Assembly (NCBI RefSeq): GCF_016714285.1
Contig: NZ_JADJNN010000008.1
Location: 260,669-324,668, forward strand
Direction of reading: 5' to 3'
From: Nannocystis sp.
Lineage (GTDB): Bacteria; Myxococcota_A; Polyangia; Nannocystales; Nannocystaceae
Length of the DNA: 64,000 nucleotides
Below are positions 40,601 to 64,000 of this stretch, piece by piece (position 1 is the stretch's first letter; each line of letters opens with the position of its first letter). The notes under the pieces were generated by a model, which ran no database searches, had not been told where the DNA came from, and saw only the letters and a program-made list of their open reading frames with translations. The position numbers and the translations under genes were made by a program.

Positions 40601-40672
40601 GGCCTGGTAGCCAAGTGGTAAGGCAGAGCTCTGCAAAAGCTCTATACGCCGGTTCAATTCCGGCCCAGGCCT
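40601..40672 (+). tRNA. tRNA-Cys (anticodon GCA)
   Basis: Cloverleaf: acceptor GGCCTGG/CCAGGCC, D-arm GCCAAGTGGTAAGGC, anticodon stem GAGCT/AGCTC with loop CTGCAAA, T-arm CGCCGGTTCAATTCCGGC; CCA not encoded. Confidence 0.85.
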
Positions 40673-57242: not shown

Positions 57243-59081
57243 TCAGATCGCCGGTGTCGGGCTGGCGACCGCGCGCGCGGGCGCGGAGAAGGCGAGCTCG
57301 ACGAGGCCCGGCAGCGGGGTCGCCTGCGGGTGCAGCTCCATGCGGCCGAGGCTGCGGTCCATGTCGCGGGCGATCGGTGACAGGCTGCGGCGGCGCTGGC
57401 CGCCCTCGGCCACCTGCGCGGCCAGGCGCTCGGGCGACGGGCGGCGCGGCCATTCGGCCAGGCCGACGGCCGCGGCCAGGTCGGCGCCCTGCGCGGGCCC
57501 GAGGGCGGCCAGCGCCCGCAGGACCAGCTCGTCGAGCACCTCCTCGGTCCACGCGAGCTTCTCCTGCATGAACGCATGGACCTCGTCGGGGCTCATCTCG
57601 CGGGCGAGGTCGAGGTGGAGGTTGGCGAGGATCGAGGGGATCGTCGGCACCTTCACGTGCACCGGGCGGGGCAGGTCCGCTTCACCCGGGACGGCGCGCC
57701 GGGCCCACTGCGAGAGCAGCAGCTGGGCCCGCCGCTGCAGCGCGCCGAACTGGTCGGCCAGCGCCTCGAAGCGGCCGTGCTCGGCCGCGGGCAGCTTGTA
57801 GATGCGGCGAAAGAAGTACTGGCAGAGGAAGGACCAGTAGGTGAAGTCGTCCCAGTACACCTTCGCAGCCATCACCCGCGGGTTGCCGAGGACCGGCCCC
57901 GAGTCGCGGTAGATCTCGATCGTGGCGGCGAACATCTTGCGGTAGAAGCGATCGAAGCGGTCCGCCATCTCGGCCATCTCGGTGGTGTCGCCGCCGCGCA
58001 GGCGGGCCTTGAGCAGCTCCGTGGTGAACGAGTTGGCGACGGCGATGAAGTCGGAGCCCGGCGAGTAGAAGGGGTCGGCGAACACGCCGGCGTCGCCGAT
58101 CAGCGACCAGCGGTCGGCCGAGAAGCAGCGCGTGCTGCCGTGGCTGTAGTGCTTGAGGCACAGGAAGTCCTCGGCCGGCAGGTCCTTGATCTGGGCGTGG
58201 CACAGCGGCTCGTGCTTGGCGACCCAGGCCAGCGAGCGCTCGAAAGTTCGGATCGTGTCGAAGGGGTGAAACTCGTCGTGGACGACGATGCCGATCGAGG
58301 TGTGGGCCTCGCCGCCGGGGCCCGGGGCGAGCGGGATGTACCACAGCCAGTAACCCGTCCCCATGAAGTGCACGGTCGAGTACCAGCGGTTGTGCTCGCG
58401 GTCGCGGTTGTGCCACCAGGCCTCGCTCGCGGGCACGAGGTCGGCGACGTCGACCCGGCCCTTGACCCGCCACCACGACGCGTTGGCGAGGTGGCCGCTC
58501 GGGGTCTTGAGCCCGAGCTTGGTCTTGAGCAGCGCGCGGCGGCCGGTGGCGTCGACGAACCAGCCCGCGCGCAGGGTGCGGGTCGTGCCGTCGTGGGCCT
58601 CGATGTGGACGAGGTGGTCGTCGGCGCCGTCGCTGGCGAGGGTGACGTCCTTGACGCTGTGGCCCTCGAGCAGGGTGACGCCGTCGGCGACGTTCATGGC
58701 CCGCAGGTCGCCCTCGAGGCGGCCGCGGTCGAGCTGGAACGACGGCACCTTGGCCAGCTCGGGCGGGCCGATCTCGGTGCGCTGCTCGAGCGGCAGCGTG
58801 TGCCCGCCGCCGGGATAGAAGCGCAGGCCGTTCTTGAGGTAGTGGTGCGTGCGCAGGTACGTGTCGAGGCCGAGCACGACGCTGAAGTAGTTGGAGGACA
58901 GCTCGACCGAGGACTCGCCGACCTTGTGCGCCGCCGCCGGCAGCGGTCGGGCCTGACGCTCGATCACGGCGACCCGCGCCTCGGGCAGCTCACGCCGCAG
59001 CTGGCGCGCCAGGGCCTGCCCGGCCAGGCCGCCGCCGCCGATCACGACATCGAAGTGTTCGGGTGCTCGCTCGCTGTGCAT
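57243..59081 (-). CDS. Flavin-dependent halogenase (tryptophan-halogenase family)
   Basis: FAD motif FDVVIGGGGLAG, halogenase signature GTGYWLWYIPL (WxWxIP) and FADPFYSPGSD. Confidence 0.75.
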   Translation of the reverse strand: MHSERAPEHFDVVIGGGGLAGQALARQLRRELPEARVAVIERQARPLPAAAHKVGESSVELSSNYFSVVLGLDTYLRTHHYLKNGLRFYPGGGHTLPLEQRTEIGPPELAKVPSFQLDRGRLEGDLRAMNVADGVTLLEGHSVKDVTLASDGADDHLVHIEAHDGTTRTLRAGWFVDATGRRALLKTKLGLKTPSGHLANASWWRVKGRVDVADLVPASEAWWHNRDREHNRWYSTVHFMGTGYWLWYIPLAPGPGGEAHTSIGIVVHDEFHPFDTIRTFERSLAWVAKHEPLCHAQIKDLPAEDFLCLKHYSHGSTRCFSADRWSLIGDAGVFADPFYSPGSDFIAVANSFTTELLKARLRGGDTTEMAEMADRFDRFYRKMFAATIEIYRDSGPVLGNPRVMAAKVYWDDFTYWSFLCQYFFRRIYKLPAAEHGRFEALADQFGALQRRAQLLLSQWARRAVPGEADLPRPVHVKVPTIPSILANLHLDLAREMSPDEVHAFMQEKLAWTEEVLDELVLRALAALGPAQGADLAAAVGLAEWPRRPSPERLAAQVAEGGQRRRSLSPIARDMDRSLGRMELHPQATPLPGLVELAFSAPARAVASPTPAI

Positions 59082-59251
59082 GCCGCAAGTCCTCGCGCCG
59101 CGGGCCTCGTCGGCGCGGGCCAAGGATACGCAAGGTCGCCGCGTTTGCCCGCGCAAAGGTGTGCGTTCGCGCTCTGCGCAGCGCCCGGCCAATCTCCCTC
59201 CTGGCGCGCTGGACGTCGCCTCGCGCCCTCGTTACCATTCCGTACCCAAAA

Positions 59252-59512
59252 ATGACGCGCGCGGAAATTTCTCAGCGGGTGGTCGGCATCCTGGTCAAGA
59301 CCTTCGAGCTCGACCCCGCCGACATTCACCCCGAATCTCGGCTCTACGAGGACCTCGACCTCGACAGCATCGACGCGGTCGACATGTTCGTCGAGCTGCA
59401 CGAGATCACCGGGCGACGCATCGACCCCGAGGTCGCCCGCAAGATCCGCACGGTCGACGACATCGTCGGCCTCGTCGAGTCCGAGCTGGCGAGCGCAGGC
59501 GCGGCATCCTGA
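59252..59512 (+). CDS. Acyl carrier protein
   Basis: 86 aa, acidic, phosphopantetheine-site motif LDLDSIDAVD. Confidence 0.75.
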   Translation: MTRAEISQRVVGILVKTFELDPADIHPESRLYEDLDLDSIDAVDMFVELHEITGRRIDPEVARKIRTVDDIVGLVESELASAGAAS

Positions 59513-59542
59513 GCGCGAGAGCTCCGCCAGCGCCCGTGCCCC

Positions 59543-60202
59543 GTGCCGAAGTTCCTCCGCATCCTGCTGTCCGCGTCGGCCTTCGCGGCGTTCTTCTTCA
59601 CCGCCTCGGTGCTGGGTCGCCTGCTGCTGCCGATCGTGGTCCACTGGCCTGGCTCGCCGGAGCGGCGTCAGGCCCGGCGCCAGCGCCTGCTGCTGCTCTC
59701 GTACCGCAGCTTCATCGGCTACATGCGGGCGCTGCGGCTGATGGGCTATATCCCCGGCGCCGACGACCGGGCGCTGCCCGAGGCGAGTGACGGCGAGTCC
59801 GGCGAGGACCGCAGCCCGGTGCTGCTGCGGATGGTCGAGCACCTGCGCTCGGGTCATCCGCTGCTGGTGTTCCCGGAGGCCTCGCGCTCGCACGAGCGAT
59901 CGCTGCGCCGCTTCCGTCGCGGCGCGATCGAGGCGGCGATCCGCGCCGGCGTGCCGATCGTCCCGGCCTTCATCTCGGTGGTGCCGCCGATGCTGATGAA
60001 GCACCAGGCCTGGTACGACGTGCCGGCCCGCGGCGGGCGCTACACGGTCGAGTTCTTCCCGGTGATCACGACCGCGGGCCAAAGCCTCGACTCGCGCGTG
60101 CTGGCGCGGGAGCTGCGGGCCCGCTACGAGCAGCGCCACGCGCAGATGCTGGCCGAGCGCGACGCCCTCGCGGCCGCGAGCTCGCGCAAGGCGCTGGCCT
60201 GA
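59543..60202 (+). CDS. LPLAT-superfamily acyltransferase (PlsC-like, atypical)
   Basis: N-terminal TM, motif III LVFPEASRS and motif IV VPIVPAF present; HX4D not evident. Confidence 0.6.
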   Translation: MPKFLRILLSASAFAAFFFTASVLGRLLLPIVVHWPGSPERRQARRQRLLLLSYRSFIGYMRALRLMGYIPGADDRALPEASDGESGEDRSPVLLRMVEHLRSGHPLLVFPEASRSHERSLRRFRRGAIEAAIRAGVPIVPAFISVVPPMLMKHQAWYDVPARGGRYTVEFFPVITTAGQSLDSRVLARELRARYEQRHAQMLAERDALAAASSRKALA

Positions 60203-60308
60203 GCCGTAACCTGAGCCGTGGCCTCGAGCTGTGCGCCCGAGCTGTGCGTCTTTGCCGGGGCCGCGGATCGCGTTGACATTGCCGACGCGCTCCGCGAGCC
60301 TCCACCCC

Positions 60309-61577
60309 ATGAGCGAGCGCTTCGATGTCGTGATCGTGGGGGCCGGGCTCTCGGGGGTCGGCGCGGCGTGCCATCTGAGGCGCTCGTGCCCGGGCAAGTC
60401 CTTCGTGCTGCTCGAGGGCCGCGAGGCGATCGGCGGCACCTGGGACCTGTTTCGTTACCCGGGGATCCGCTCCGACTCGGACATGTACACCTTCGGCTAC
60501 GCGTTCGAGCCGTGGAAGGGGGACAAGGCGCTGGCCGACGGCCCGGCGATCCGCGCCTATGTGCAGGCCACGGCCCGCAAGTACGACGTCGACACGCAGG
60601 TGCGCTTCGGCCACCGCGTGACGCGGCTGTCGTGGTCGAGCGTCGACGCCGAGTGGACGATCGAGGTGACCCGCAGCGACGGCAGCAGCGCCCGCTTCAC
60701 CGCCGGCTTCGTGTGGATGTGCACCGGCTACTACCGCTACGACGCCGGCCACACGCCGGAATTCGCGGGCCGCGAGCGCTTCCGCGGGCGCATCGTCCAC
60801 CCGCAGCACTGGCCCGAGGACCTCGACTACAGCGGCCAGCGGGTGGTCGTGATCGGCAGCGGCGCGACCGCGGTGACGCTGGTGCCGGCGATGGCCGGAC
60901 GCGCCGCGCACGTGACCATGCTGCAGCGCTCGCCGAGCTATGTGCTGTCGCGGCCGGCGACCGACGCGGTGGCCCGGGGTCTGCGGCGGGTGCTCCCGGA
61001 GCGCGTCGCGTACGCGCTGTCGCGCTGGAAGAACGTGGCCCTGGCGACGCTGCTGTACCAGCTGTCGCGGCGGCGCCCCGCGGGCATGAAGCGCTTCCTC
61101 ATCGATCAGGTGCAGCGCGCGCTCGGCCCGGATTACCCCGTCGATCCGGACTTCACCCCGCGCTACGACCCGTGGGATCAGCGCCTGTGCCTGGTCCCGG
61201 AGAACGACCTGTTCGTGGCGATCCGCGAGGGCAAGGCCGATGTCGTCACGGACACGGTCGAGTGCTTCACCGAGACGGGGATCCGCCTCGGCTCCGGCGC
61301 CGAGCTGCCGGCCGATCTGGTGGTGACCGCGACCGGGCTCGAGCTGCTGTTCCTCGGCGGCAGCGAGCTGGTGGTCGACGGGCGCACGATCGATGTGGCG
61401 GCCGAGATGAGCTTCAAGGGCATGATGCTGAGCGGGGTGCCCAACCTGGCGTTCACGGTCGGCTACACCAACGCGTCGTGGACGCTGCGTGCGGACCTGG
61501 TGGCGGAGCACGTGTGCCGATTGCTGCACCACATGGATCGGGTCGGGGCGCGCAAGGTGGTGCCGCGGCGCTTGTGA
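60309..61577 (+). CDS. Baeyer-Villiger-type flavin monooxygenase (class B FPMO)
   Basis: FAD GxGxxG VVIVGAGLSG, BVMO fingerprint FRGRIVHPQHWPE (FxGxxxHxxxWP), NADP GxGxxA VIGSGATA. Confidence 0.8.
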   Translation: MSERFDVVIVGAGLSGVGAACHLRRSCPGKSFVLLEGREAIGGTWDLFRYPGIRSDSDMYTFGYAFEPWKGDKALADGPAIRAYVQATARKYDVDTQVRFGHRVTRLSWSSVDAEWTIEVTRSDGSSARFTAGFVWMCTGYYRYDAGHTPEFAGRERFRGRIVHPQHWPEDLDYSGQRVVVIGSGATAVTLVPAMAGRAAHVTMLQRSPSYVLSRPATDAVARGLRRVLPERVAYALSRWKNVALATLLYQLSRRRPAGMKRFLIDQVQRALGPDYPVDPDFTPRYDPWDQRLCLVPENDLFVAIREGKADVVTDTVECFTETGIRLGSGAELPADLVVTATGLELLFLGGSELVVDGRTIDVAAEMSFKGMMLSGVPNLAFTVGYTNASWTLRADLVAEHVCRLLHHMDRVGARKVVPRRL

Positions 61578-61578
61578 A

Positions 61579-61846
61579 CGATCGGGTGCGCGGAGGACGT
61601 CGCGCGGGCCGGTGCGGTCCGGCTGGGCGTCCGCGGAGGCTCGAGAAGCCGGATGTCCGAGAGGGGGGTCGCCCTCAAACACGGCCTGACACACCGTCGC
61701 CGGGGTGATATCCGGGTCTACGCCGGACTCGGTCGACCCCCCTCTCGGCCCTCCGGCAAGTGAAGCCTCCGCTCAAGGACGGTGCGGTCGGCCTCGCCGA
61801 AAGCCGGACCGCACCGGCCCTGAGGGCGCGACATGGCTGCATGGAC
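61579..61846. repeat. Structured inverted-repeat element copy A (~268 bp, itself a long imperfect palindrome)
   Basis: Near-identical to reverse complement of 62953-63223; internal arms GGGCCGGTGCGGTCCGGC...GCCGGACCGCACCGGCCC and CCGAGAGGGGGGTCG...CGACCCCCCTCTCGG. Confidence 0.85.
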
Positions 61847-61891
61847 ATGTCCCTTACGACATGCGGCCCGCGGCCCGCGGTTGGAATCACG

Positions 61892-62896
61892 TCATAAAGG
61901 GATAGCGCAGACGCCCACGTGCTTGAAGCCAAACGGGTTCGGGTCGAACCATTGCACACATGTTTGGTCAGGGTTTGGGCAGGGGTCCATCCTCGTCAAG
62001 TCGCAGAAGGGCTGGCAGCAGCCCTGGGAGCCCTGCATGCACGCGCTCGAGGCGCTGGCGGTGTCGATGCAGACGAGGCCCTTGTCGCAGGCGTTGGGGA
62101 GGTCGCAGGGGTCGTTGGTCTTGCCCATGTCGCCCGAGGCTTCGACGCACTTTACGCTCCCGTCGATGATGAGGCACAACTCGTCGCCGGGGCAGTCCTG
62201 AATCAGCGGATTGCAGACCGGTAGGCAGAGGTTCAGCACGCTGTCGCCGAAGATGTGACACGAGAGGTCACCGTCGCAGATCGGGGCGTCAGGGGTGCCT
62301 GTGCAAAAGGCGACGCAGTGGCCCATGTTCATGTTGTTGACGTCGACGGCCCAGCACATCGCACCCGCTTCGCAGTTGTCGATGCCGCTGACACCGCTGC
62401 CCTCGGCCGTGCAGATGTCGCCGGGGACCTTGTCACCGGTCACAGGGACACATTTGGTGGCGTTCCAGTTCCCGCCGCCATCGTCGGCCCACACGGTGCA
62501 CTTCTCGCCGGGAGCGCAGTCCTGCTTGTACACGTCACACTTGATCGTGCCCCCATTGTCAAAATCGTGGCCGGTGATGAAGCCGCTGGGATAGTCGCTG
62601 GTCGAGCACGCGGTATCGCAGGGGCCCGTGCTGCTGGTGCTTGTGGGGGTTCCGATCGTCGGGGCGCTGGCCTCGGTGCTGCTTGTGGGGCTGGTGGTGG
62701 TGGTGCTGCTGCTGCCGCTGCTGCCGCCCTCCGTGGTCTGCGGCTTCGTGGGGCCGCAGGCGAGCAGCATGGCGACACCCAGGCCCAAGGCTGCGATCGC
62801 GACCGGGGCGGGGGCGTCGAGCAATTCGACGCCGCAGATCGGGCAGCGCGCCTCCACGCGGCGGACGAGACGGTGGCAGCGATGACACGTTCTCAT
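61892..62896 (-). CDS. Cys-rich lipoprotein with N-terminal zinc-ribbon-like CxxC..CxxC and Ser/Thr linker
   Basis: MRTCHRCHRLVRRVEARCPICG then TM/lipobox AMLLACG, ~40 Cys in mature part; lower GC. Confidence 0.6.
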   Translation of the reverse strand: MRTCHRCHRLVRRVEARCPICGVELLDAPAPVAIAALGLGVAMLLACGPTKPQTTEGGSSGSSSTTTTSPTSSTEASAPTIGTPTSTSSTGPCDTACSTSDYPSGFITGHDFDNGGTIKCDVYKQDCAPGEKCTVWADDGGGNWNATKCVPVTGDKVPGDICTAEGSGVSGIDNCEAGAMCWAVDVNNMNMGHCVAFCTGTPDAPICDGDLSCHIFGDSVLNLCLPVCNPLIQDCPGDELCLIIDGSVKCVEASGDMGKTNDPCDLPNACDKGLVCIDTASASSACMQGSQGCCQPFCDLTRMDPCPNPDQTCVQWFDPNPFGFKHVGVCAIPL

Positions 62897-62952
62897 CGCT
62901 GCACGCTATCAGTGCGCACACGTTCTGGGCAGCGTCGCCGGCGAGGGCGGTA

Positions 62953-63223
62953 CGCTGGCCGTGCAGCCATGTCGCGCCCCCAGGGCCGGTGCGGTCCGGC
63001 GCTCGGCGAGGCCGACCGCACCGTCCCTTGGCGGAGGCTTCGCTTGCCGGAGGGCCGGAAGAGGCCTCGACCGAGTCCGGCGTAGACCCGGATTTCACCC
63101 CGGCGACGGTTTGTCAGGCCGTGTTTGAGGGCGAGGCCTCTTCCGGACATCCGGCTTCTCGAGCCTGCGCGGGCGCCCAGCCGGACCGCACCGGCCCGTG
63201 CGACGTCGTCCGCGCCCCGATCG
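62953..63223. repeat. Structured inverted-repeat element copy B (inverted relative to copy A)
   Basis: Reverse complement aligns with copy A over ~265 bp with clustered compensatory differences (CCGGAAGAGGCCTCG...CGAGGCCTCTTCCGG). Confidence 0.85.
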
Positions 63224-63296
63224 CCAAGAACCCCCATGTCGAGGTCCCAGCACCGTGCACGATCGACGGTGCGGGCGGAGCCGCGGTGTCGAGGTA

Positions 63297-64000
63297 CTAG
63301 CCGGTCGAGCTCCGCGGCTTACACACGAGCAAGGTGTGGCTCATGCCGAGCTCGTGGTGCTGGGCCTCGATCTCGAGGCCCGCCGCCTCGACGCAGGCGA
63401 GGAAGGTGGTCGATCGGTACATCTGGCTGGTGCCGTTGGCGATCGCGGTGAAGTAGAGCGAGGTCATCTGCAGGCAGAAGCTGGCGGCCCGGAAGCGCTG
63501 CTGATCCCAGAAGGCCTCGAGGATGTAGATCCGGCCGTGCTCGGGGATCGCCGCGGCGCAGCGGCGGAGGATCGCCACGATCTCGGCCTCGGAGAAGCAG
63601 TCGAGGAACTGGCTCATCCAGATCGCGTCGAAGCCCGGCGGCACCACGGTCGCGGGGTCGAGCAGGTCGGCGGGGTGGAAGCGGACGCGATCCAGGAGGC
63701 CCGCGCCGCGCAGCAGCTCCTCGGCGTTGCGCAGCTGGCCGGGGAGGTCCATCAGCGTGACCTCGACCTCGGGGTCGTGGCGCAGGCAGGCGCGGGCCCA
63801 CTTGCCGGTGTTGCCGCCGATGTCGAGCAGGCGCCGCGGCTTGCGGCGAAACACCAGCGGCAGGGTCGAGGCGAAGGCGCCGTCGGAGTAGAAGTGATCG
63901 AAGCCGAACCACGAGCGGCGGATCGGCTCGGGCAGCTGGGCGAGGCCCTCGTAGACCGTGCGCCACTCGCCGAAGACCTTGAGCCCGGCCGGCGTGCCGG
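63297..64000 (-). CDS. Class I SAM-dependent O-methyltransferase-like protein, N-terminal part outside window
   Basis: SAM motif LLDIGGNTGKWA, LMDLPGQL, C-terminal OMT-like region; ORF continues open to window end (GTG 63852 in track is internal). Confidence 0.7.
   Translation of the reverse strand, partial: GTPAGLKVFGEWRTVYEGLAQLPEPIRRSWFGFDHFYSDGAFASTLPLVFRRKPRRLLDIGGNTGKWARACLRHDPEVEVTLMDLPGQLRNAEELLRGAGLLDRVRFHPADLLDPATVVPPGFDAIWMSQFLDCFSEAEIVAILRRCAAAIPEHGRIYILEAFWDQQRFRAASFCLQMTSLYFTAIANGTSQMYRSTTFLACVEAAGLEIEAQHHELGMSHTLLVCKPRSSTG

Follow-up and report, generated by a model that had tools for sequence, protein, structure and literature searches.

What are two near-identical, inverted palindromes of about 270 nt doing beside the 3' ends of genes in a myxobacterial chromosome? 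The question is raised by a 64,000-nt stretch of Nannocystis sp. DNA (contig NZ_JADJNN010000008.1, positions 260,669 to 324,668; hereafter the window), in which the two elements, copy A and copy B, flank a gene for a Cys-rich secreted or lipoprotein-like protein. A preliminary description, made without database searches, proposed selection on a folded structure and set three explanations side by side: a mobile repeat family of the kind of miniature inverted-repeat transposable elements (MITEs) or ERIC sequences, paired terminator structures in 3' untranslated regions (3'-UTRs), and a substrate for recombination or inversion. With about even confidence, we favour the reading that A and B belong to a MITE/ERIC-like repeat family of mobile origin which has been retained as a co-transcribed 3'-UTR hairpin, by a mechanism that we infer from sequence. 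The element is probably a functional structured element, neither junk nor a gene cassette. To our knowledge, the non-coding repeats and RNA structures of myxobacteria, whose genomes are very large, are almost unexplored.

The inverted, near-identical pair was readily confirmed. A repeat search returned arms at 61585-61847 and 62956-63218, which are 263 nt long, 90% complementary and 1108 nt apart, and a gapped alignment extends them to ~61579-61849 and ~62954-63223, in agreement with the coordinates first given. In a BLAST search of copy A against the window, copy B was found with E = 1.5e-103, and there was no further copy in the 64 kb. The outer arms, GGGCCGGTGCGGTCCGGC and GCCGGACCGCACCGGCCC (18/19 bp), are exact in both copies. 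At the outside of the element is a short tail on the left, (TGAAC)GATCGG; further in follow imperfect helices, then helix 3, which is perfect over 19 bp, two more imperfect helices, helix 6 and an apex. Helix 6 comprises 24 bp and has two conserved pyrimidine-pyrimidine mismatches at its base. The parts of the two copies are as follows.

61579..61868, plus strand: copy A, long form, with left tail (C)GATCGGGT, a hairpin body of ~265 nt (61585-61847) and a right tail
61606..61624, plus strand: 5' arm of helix 3 of copy A (outer, 19-bp perfect helix), GGGCCGGTGCGGTCCGGCT, 100% complementary to its partner at 61802-61820
61648..61674, plus strand: 5' arm of helix 6 of copy A, GCCGGATGTCCGAGAGGGGGGTCGCCC, with an 11-bp core (61660-61670) that is hypervariable yet always paired
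61675..61730, plus strand: apical domain of copy A, ~56 nt, asymmetric, with two small hairpins
61731..61757, plus strand: 3' arm of helix 6 of copy A, GGTCGACCCCCCTCTCGGCCCTCCGGC
61802..61820, plus strand: 3' arm of helix 3 of copy A, AGCCGGACCGCACCGGCCC
61848-61868, plus strand: right tail of copy A, 21 nt, GGACATGTCCCTTACGACATG, conserved (21/21 identical in loci L028 and L039)
62954..63223, minus strand: copy B, short form without right tail, ~75 nt after the stop codon of the O-methyltransferase gene (63297) and co-oriented with it
63046..63072, minus strand: 3' arm of helix 6 of copy B on the element's own strand, B-type stem with CGAGGCCTCTTCCGG core
63129..63155, minus strand: 5' arm of helix 6 of copy B on the element's own strand, with CCGGAAGAGGCCTCG core

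Copy A begins 2 nt past the stop codon of a monooxygenase gene and is co-oriented with that gene. Copy B had likewise been thought to follow the O-methyltransferase stop directly, which has to be corrected: the nucleotides between the two are a poorly conserved spacer. The right tail GGACATGTCCCTTACGACATG is present at four loci, namely copy A and three others. The apical domain is the most conserved part among typical copies, and its junction motifs TCAAACA-GGC and GGACTC-GTC are retained even in L029b, a copy of a divergent subfamily. The 3' arm of helix 3 has an alternative partner, a degenerate third repeat of the arm motif (GGACGGTGCGGTCGGCC, 61777-61793), with which it would form a local hairpin on the 3' side; RNAalifold favours this local hairpin when partial copies are included.

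The first line of evidence for the favoured reading is the placement of the elements relative to genes. At all eight independent loci with a visible upstream gene (the window copies winA and winB as well as L029a, L029b, L033, L032, L030 and L019), the left end lies 4-85 nt past a stop codon, and the element runs in the same direction as the gene that ends there (two-sided binomial p = 0.008). At L029, an inverted pair lies between convergent genes, and at L033 a single copy occupies a tandem gene junction. Convergent genes that acquire one copy each thus give rise to inverted pairs such as A and B, and the inverted arrangement is a consequence of the placement rule. Since the members of a pair are opposite in polarity with respect to replication, the orientation rule tracks transcription. 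The idea that the two copies delimit a cassette did not hold up: the L029 pair encloses no gene, L030 looks like a fused remnant of such a pair, and paralogues of the protein encoded between A and B occur without elements.

The second line of evidence is constraint. Three contigs, L028, L034 and L039, represent the same locus as the window in strains of ~95% identity. Between the window and L034, copy A differs at 2 of 247 positions (99.2% identity), as against 43 of 421 third codon positions in the adjacent monooxygenase gene (89.8% identity; p = 2e-7). When the window is compared with L028 and L039, those segments of the elements that have not been exchanged between copies are 99-100% identical, coding DNA 94-97%, and the spacers just outside the elements 63-78%; copy B and its counterpart in L039 are 99.0% identical. 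The sharp alternation of conserved and diverged sequence over tens of bases makes a recombination tract an unlikely cause, and as paralogous copies retain their own diagnostic differences, homogenisation is no explanation for the conservation either. From these comparisons, the individual copies appear to be under purifying selection, which one would not expect of inert transposon remnants and which suggests a function at the level of the host.

The same strains show that the copies exchange parts. In L039, the site of copy A carries a B-type helix 6 and apex together with A-type 3' sequence and flank. In L028, the site of copy B is occupied by a mosaic (L028B), which is B-type in its 5' part, A-like in helix 6 and A-type in its 3' part. 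Such mosaics indicate exchange of the central module and of 3' segments between A and B, either by patchwork gene conversion or by repeated recombination between the inverted copies. An inverted isomer was not seen, as the gene order in L028 is colinear with that in the window. The proposal that the pair is a substrate for recombination or inversion is upheld in the sense of gene conversion between A and B.

The third line of evidence comes from folding and covariation. That each copy is palindromic in itself was borne out, in that a single long hairpin is predicted for either strand of copy A, with RNA free energies of -168.1 kcal/mol (z -5.7) and, for the reverse strand, -166.9 kcal/mol (z -7.2); as single-stranded DNA (ssDNA), copy A folds with -98.2 kcal/mol (z -7.3). 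The same fold is predicted for each of the full-length copies (z -3.5 to -8.1). The inner 15-bp stem, for which compensatory differences had been reported, reads CCGAGAGGGGGGTCG...CGACCCCCCTCTCGG in A and CCGGAAGAGGCCTCG...CGAGGCCTCTTCCGG in B, and its five differences per arm are indeed paired double changes in five of five cases (one from A-T to G-C, two from G-C to A-T and two from G-C to C-G). We projected the long-hairpin structure onto an alignment of 12 sequences. Changes on both sides were found in 11 of the 24 pairs of helix 6, with 99.6% of cells paired. The covariation score for the whole structure was reached by 0 of 500 shuffles, and with slid partners as a control, pairing fell from 92% to 31-46%.

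At least five types of helix 6 stem can be distinguished, represented by winA, L029a and L033, by L028B, by winB and L039, by L031, and by L029b. Exceptions to the strict pairing are a G.T intermediate in L032 and one uncorrected A.G mismatch in L031, and L019 has a further type of 5' arm. The core of the helix also varies more than any other part of the element, with 13 of 22 columns variable, as compared to 42 of 224 elsewhere (p = 1e-4). In helix 3, 17 of 19 pairs are invariant, and the rare changes are uncompensated. The compensatory change that was seen in the preliminary description is thus real, and family-wide in helix 6, but the other helices lack compensation, so that the proposed selection on the whole palindrome was too broad a claim.

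How widely is the family distributed? Further copies were sought and found on metagenome contigs and in one metagenome-assembled genome (MAG) of Nannocystis. Together with the two in the window they make up no fewer than eight independent loci, and we conclude that the family is dispersed. A scan of GTDB species representatives with an 18-mer pattern from the apex gave 27 loci, of which one is a true copy (L019, in a Nannocystis sp. MAG, truncated at the contig end). A more specific apical pattern, used on metagenomes, gave six contigs, five of them from one sample. The copies are 78-95% identical. Apart from the window pair, they comprise the following.

Full-length copies: L028B, L029a, L029b (divergent subfamily, 78%) and L033
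Truncated copies: L031, L032 and L019
Rearranged copy: L030

Multiple dispersed non-coding copies in the range of 50-500 bp, at unrelated loci, and several contigs that end inside the element bear out the comparison with MITEs and ERIC sequences. The element evidently breaks short-read assemblies, and it attracts false calls of open reading frames (ORFs). Two loci have multiplied ends. At L029, end modules are repeated in tandem (848-940 and 1345-1575), with three ~41-nt left units (GGCTGAACGAGCGGCGCGGACGACGTCGCACGAGCG) before copy a and three ~73-nt right units after copy b. At L030, the left end is duplicated, and between convergent genes (L030:1355-1575) a plus-oriented fragment of the left end has been joined to the left half and the apex of a copy on the minus strand. 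The arrangement resembles what is left of an inverted pair that has lost its centre by deletion, although an artefact of assembly is possible.

Other searches returned no relatives. With an nhmmer profile, neither the window nor ~111 kb of DNA of more distant Nannocystaceae yielded an extra copy, a distant BLAST search of a plasmid collection gave no relative, and the single match in viral contigs is a chance 18-mer inside a coding region. The window contains nothing above the Rfam 15 gathering thresholds except a tRNA gene (40601-40672). A permissive Rfam scan of 61500-63300 gave only chance matches to miRNA hairpins (E >= 0.4, 18-20 bits versus cut-offs of 77-90). In the searchable literature, we found nothing relevant on a palindromic repeat or MITE in Nannocystis or other myxobacteria. 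The family appears to be undescribed and restricted to one species-level lineage of Nannocystis, yet of a familiar kind, that of lineage-specific palindromic intergenic repeats. The narrow distribution found so far limits the generality of the conclusions.

The remaining 26 loci of the genome scan are coding coincidences, in which the apical 18-mer also encodes the peptide ALKHGLT in triose-phosphate isomerase and other genes. The Planctomycetota and Acidobacteriota loci L002, L005, L011, L012 and L016 carry ...N[AS]LKHGLT..., for which the codons comprise the very 18-22 nt found in the apex, and the triose-phosphate isomerase genes at L009, L025 and L026 match as well. The coincidence illustrates how short, AT-richer motifs can mislead pattern scans.

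Together, the co-oriented placement after stop codons, the strong conservation, the covariation in one helix and the exchange of modules make the element a good candidate for a functional RNA structure at 3' ends or for a structure-specific DNA site. With its unusual length, it is also worth considering as a new large cis-acting structured RNA of myxobacteria. On the favoured reading, the element would be co-transcribed as the 3'-UTR of the upstream gene, and the long hairpin would form a barrier at the 3' end of the transcript, by termination or pausing that is independent of a U-tract, by protection against 3' exonucleases, or by double-strand-specific processing. It would also insulate neighbouring or convergent genes from each other, and at convergent junctions it would act from either side, since the reverse strand folds equally well. 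Helix 6 may need only a fixed stem length, so that its sequence could drift under selection for pairing, and the conserved apical domain and the bulges would provide sequence-specific contacts for a putative partner. The family may have spread by transposition or recombination, catalyzed by an enzyme encoded outside this window, with the copies then retained by selection; gene conversion between A and B would be a by-product of the inverted arrangement. If so, the family would offer a handle on the question of how transcripts are ended or insulated where genes are tightly packed or convergent, in high-GC bacteria that lack classical U-tract terminators.

Several observations weigh against this reading. 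Outside helix 6, substitutions result in broken pairs, often common to several copies, and in our alignment selection on the full-length hairpin as such appears unsupported there. Wobble pairs do not give a strand signal, with 13 G.T and 26 A.C cells in the whole structure; in the absence of an excess of G.T, the evidence for pairing fits ssDNA as well as RNA, and either strand. The ssDNA fold is also as significant as the RNA fold. The sample is small (eight loci, with some copies truncated), and several of the cells counted as compensated are the same stem types relocated by gene conversion rather than independent events. Neither a U-tract terminator nor a promoter consensus was found at the element. 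As for mobility, no direct repeat is visible at the junctions, and no syntenic empty site was found among the relatives L035-L038 and L044-L046; orthologues of the monooxygenase (82-85% identity) and paralogues of the lipoprotein occur in other contexts without an element, so that no insertion boundary can be defined. As neither an empty site nor a target-site duplication nor an autonomous partner was found, mobility is deduced from dispersal only. The proposed paired 3'-UTR or terminator structures are upheld by position and orientation (8/8), by sequence constraint and by covariation-supported pairs in helix 6 only, but not in the form of a canonical U-tract terminator.

How does the element compare with known systems? 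The ERIC/IRU sequences of Enterobacteriaceae and the Correia elements (CREE/NEMIS) of Neisseria are similar to it in being non-coding, imperfectly palindromic, dispersed, intergenic, confined to one lineage and prone to break contigs. They are co-transcribed with their neighbours and form long RNA hairpins, with known or proposed effects on mRNA stability, RNase processing and termination. The Nannocystis element is about twice as long (265-290 versus 100-170 nt), has no sequence similarity to them, and shows neither a Correia-type TA duplication nor short terminal inverted repeats. Moreover, ERIC and Correia elements occur in both orientations, whereas the Nannocystis family is strictly co-oriented with genes and abuts their stop codons (8/8), and it differs further by its hypervariable but strictly paired helix and by the strong constraint between strains.

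Hairpin-only ("I-shaped") or bidirectional terminators, as proposed for high-GC bacteria, are also similar, as they are stable, GC-rich hairpins without U-tract that lie after stop codons or between convergent genes. They would act from both strands, and the reverse strand of copy A folds equally well. Ordinary terminators, however, are short (stems of 10-20 bp), locus-specific and unrepeated, whereas the Nannocystis element is a multi-helix structure of 265 nt with a conserved apex.

Integron attC sites share with the element the imperfect palindrome at the 3' end of genes, the conserved structure and the varying sequence of the central stem. They are recognized as folded single strands, and the idea of a cassette stems from integrons. 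They are, however, 57-141 bp long and form arrays in direct orientation next to intI, with R'' (RYYYAAC) and R' (GTTRRRY) cores, while the Nannocystis copies are inverted and other pairs are gene-free. An attC identity was rejected, with no RYYYAAC or GTTRRRY core in a regular-expression search of six full copies on both strands, inverted orientation and a length of ~265 bp.

REP sequences, with their BIME and REPIN arrangements and RAYT tyrosine transposases, resemble the element in being palindromic and extragenic, often arranged as inverted dimers at the 3' ends of genes, and in showing compensatory variation in their stems. REPs have been proposed to stabilise mRNA and to act in termination (PMC3733652, PMC2817692). 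REPs are 20-40 bp long, are present in hundreds of copies per genome and have a GTAG or CGTC head, in contrast to the Nannocystis unit of ~270 bp. The CGTC REPs have stems of 8-9 bp that start with A.T pairs, loops of 4-5 nt and a CCA tail, which the GC-only 7-bp local hairpin of the element does not match. We rejected a REP/REPIN identity on the size of the unit, on this deviation from the CGTC-family geometry, and on the finding that, within the 64 kb, the 18-mer of the arms occurs only inside the two elements.

The main rival of the 3'-UTR reading is a mobile element that acts at the level of DNA, which we regard as possible but on balance doubtful. The hairpin would then be formed by ssDNA and would be recognized through its structure by a transposase or recombinase, whose substrate it would be, as with the IS200/IS605 family and its PATE/REPIN derivatives, with IS91-type rolling-circle ends, or with integron attC sites. 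Helix 6 would be paired for recognition, the bulges and the apex would be protein contacts, and the orientation bias would come from the insertion mechanism. The significance of the ssDNA fold (z -7.3), which matches that of the RNA folds, speaks for this explanation, as does the lack of a bias of G.U over A.C that would single out an RNA strand. It would also fit the dispersal of a lineage-restricted family whose members are 88-95% identical, the tandem multiplication of terminal modules in L029 and L030, as if ends had been repeatedly processed, and the absence of an evident target-site duplication, as single-strand or rolling-circle mechanisms would allow. In addition, several loci have a (C/G)TTG or GTTC just outside the left end, which was noted post hoc. 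It does not, however, account for orthologous copies that are conserved 10-fold better than synonymous sites and far above adjacent spacers, unlike selfish insertions. Members of an inverted pair, moreover, are opposite to each other in polarity with respect to replication, yet both follow their upstream gene, which argues against a lagging-strand bias. The 64-kb window contains no gene for a transposase, recombinase, integrase or RAYT, the attC cores are absent, and the outer arms lie outside the published CGTC/GTAG definition of REPs, with the 18-mer arm never found alone in the window.

Unlikely in our view is a purely mutational origin of the compensatory pattern, in which template switching or mismatch correction in the hairpin copies changes from one arm of helix 6 to the other, and gene conversion moves the resulting stem types between copies. 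Gene conversion is directly visible here, and strand-specific wobble signals are missing. The arms of helix 6 are also the closest pair of arms in the element, with a 56-nt spacer, and in quasipalindrome mutagenesis templated correction is most efficient between the closest arms. Correction alone, however, does not raise the substitution rate, and variability in the helix 6 core is ~6-fold that of the rest. Helix 6 itself has, at its base, two U.C/T.C mismatches that have been stably inherited without being corrected, as have many mismatches in other helices, and both a G.T intermediate (L032) and an uncorrected A.G (L031) exist. As the rest of the element is strongly constrained, selection acts on the element in any case.

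A more far-reaching version, which we consider quite unlikely, is that the element is a domesticated module of ~270 nt of structured RNA or ssDNA, in which helix 6 would be an identity or "address" determinant that is read by a dedicated partner and can be exchanged by gene conversion. If true, the element would be distinct from a passive hairpin, and myxobacteria would have a class of programmable cis-regulatory elements at 3' ends that was not known before.

Very unlikely is an inversion switch, in which the inverted pair would flip the 1.1-kb segment and thereby switch the Cys-rich surface protein by phase variation. A single surface-protein gene does lie between inverted repeats of 263 nt and 90% identity, the mosaics found at orthologous sites mean that A and B recombine, and the short-read contigs of L039 break symmetrically inside both repeats (the L034 contig also breaks inside the repeat). 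The segment is colinear wherever its orientation can be read (window and L028), however, and L039, with a B-type centre in both copies, fits gene conversion and not a single crossover. Other pairs are gene-free (L029) or fused (L030), single copies are found at tandem junctions (L033), no invertase gene is nearby, and the conserved region upstream of the Cys-rich gene (62897-62955) lies inside the segment and would move along with it. Like mutational correction of the palindrome, the switch is a possible contributor and a poor overall explanation.

The suggestion that the ORFs at 61705-61905 (plus strand), 62559-63098 (minus strand) and 62893-63237 (minus strand) encode small conserved proteins is effectively refuted, since open frames of 51-106 codons in several frames are expected at 72-75% GC, no gene is called there in the public contig L034, there is no Pfam match and no protein homologue (for the ORF that spans copy B, none among 5.8 billion proteins), variable columns are distributed 12:14:14 over the codon positions, the frame is interrupted by one indel, and none of the frames stays open throughout the copies. 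The doubt cast on the first two of these ORFs in the preliminary description was therefore justified. The three grounds on which that description would have been given up all turned out in its favour, as there are more copies, the differences between the stems are paired, and the ORFs are non-coding.

Some minor observations concern the junctions. Most loci have a (C/G)TTG or GTTC tetranucleotide immediately beyond the left end (in the window at 61570-61580 and 63224-63232, and also at L032, L029, L030 and L019), a pattern that was noticed post hoc and could be a target preference or a part of the terminus. Several left ends read TGAAC..., and in copy A and L034 this sequence provides the TGA stop of the upstream gene. 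Tn7-like TGT...ACA ends with a 5-bp duplication, as judged by eye, do not hold across the copies, and IS91-like CTTG/GTTC targets, likewise seen by eye at the junctions, were set aside as suggestive but post hoc.

The genes around the elements, two of which had been named as neighbours of the copies and are confirmed as such, are the following.

60231-61577, plus strand: monooxygenase of FMO/BVMO type, flanking copy A
61892-62896, minus strand: Cys-rich secreted or lipoprotein-like protein, 334 aa, without Pfam match; a context gene, outside the element proper
Stop codon at 63297, minus strand: O-methyltransferase, flanking copy B

The lower GC content of the enclosed gene is real, at 65.5% (GC3 86%) versus 70-71% (GC3 95-97%); the GC content of the 64-kb window is 71%, and paralogues of the gene at other loci are likewise low in GC (67-69%). 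A protein search gave 501 homologues of the Cys-rich protein, and those that bear names are from Nannocystis. The protein is a member of a large family of Nannocystis paralogues, whose loci elsewhere are without elements. The family is very large, often arranged in tandem arrays and without Pfam domain, and public records mislabel some of its members as ribulose phosphate epimerase. At its N-terminus, the protein has a zinc-ribbon-like CxxC...CxxC segment (MRTCHRCHRLVRRVEARCPICG), followed by a hydrophobic stretch and an LLACG lipobox; strains L028 and L039 have also conserved the zinc-ribbon-like segment. Upstream of the start codon, 59 nt (62897-62955) are 100% identical across three strains whose coding DNA differs by 4-6%, and the start-proximal ~44 nt are also common to the paralogue loci L041 and L042. 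The paralogue family probably has a conserved promoter or 5'-UTR here.

The monooxygenase of the window is shorter by the last 65 codons than its 98%-identical orthologue (P0001/L034) and all other homologues. The difference is due to a 195-bp in-frame deletion (window junction 61564-61577 versus L034:1337-1531), which joins ...GTGCCGCGGCGC to TTGTGA, so that the original last codon and stop are retained. The truncated enzyme may be inactive. The deletion ends ~17 nt before the body of the element. It was not the element that truncated the gene, since L034 has an intact gene whose stop codon precedes the element, and the deletion in the window is a separate event.

The genes at 57246-61577 and 63297-64000 encode a halogenase-like flavoprotein (minus strand), an acyl carrier protein, an acyltransferase, the monooxygenase and the O-methyltransferase, a small gene set that hosts the elements and suggests a locus for lipid or aryl-polyene-type modification. 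The tRNA gene (40601-40672, plus strand), the sole gathering-level Rfam match, is followed by a Ser/Thr kinase gene and has no adjoining integrase. The remainder of the window is core chromosome, with genes for SHMT, IGPS, Lon, DnaK, PurH, PurD, ParA and several Ser/Thr kinases.

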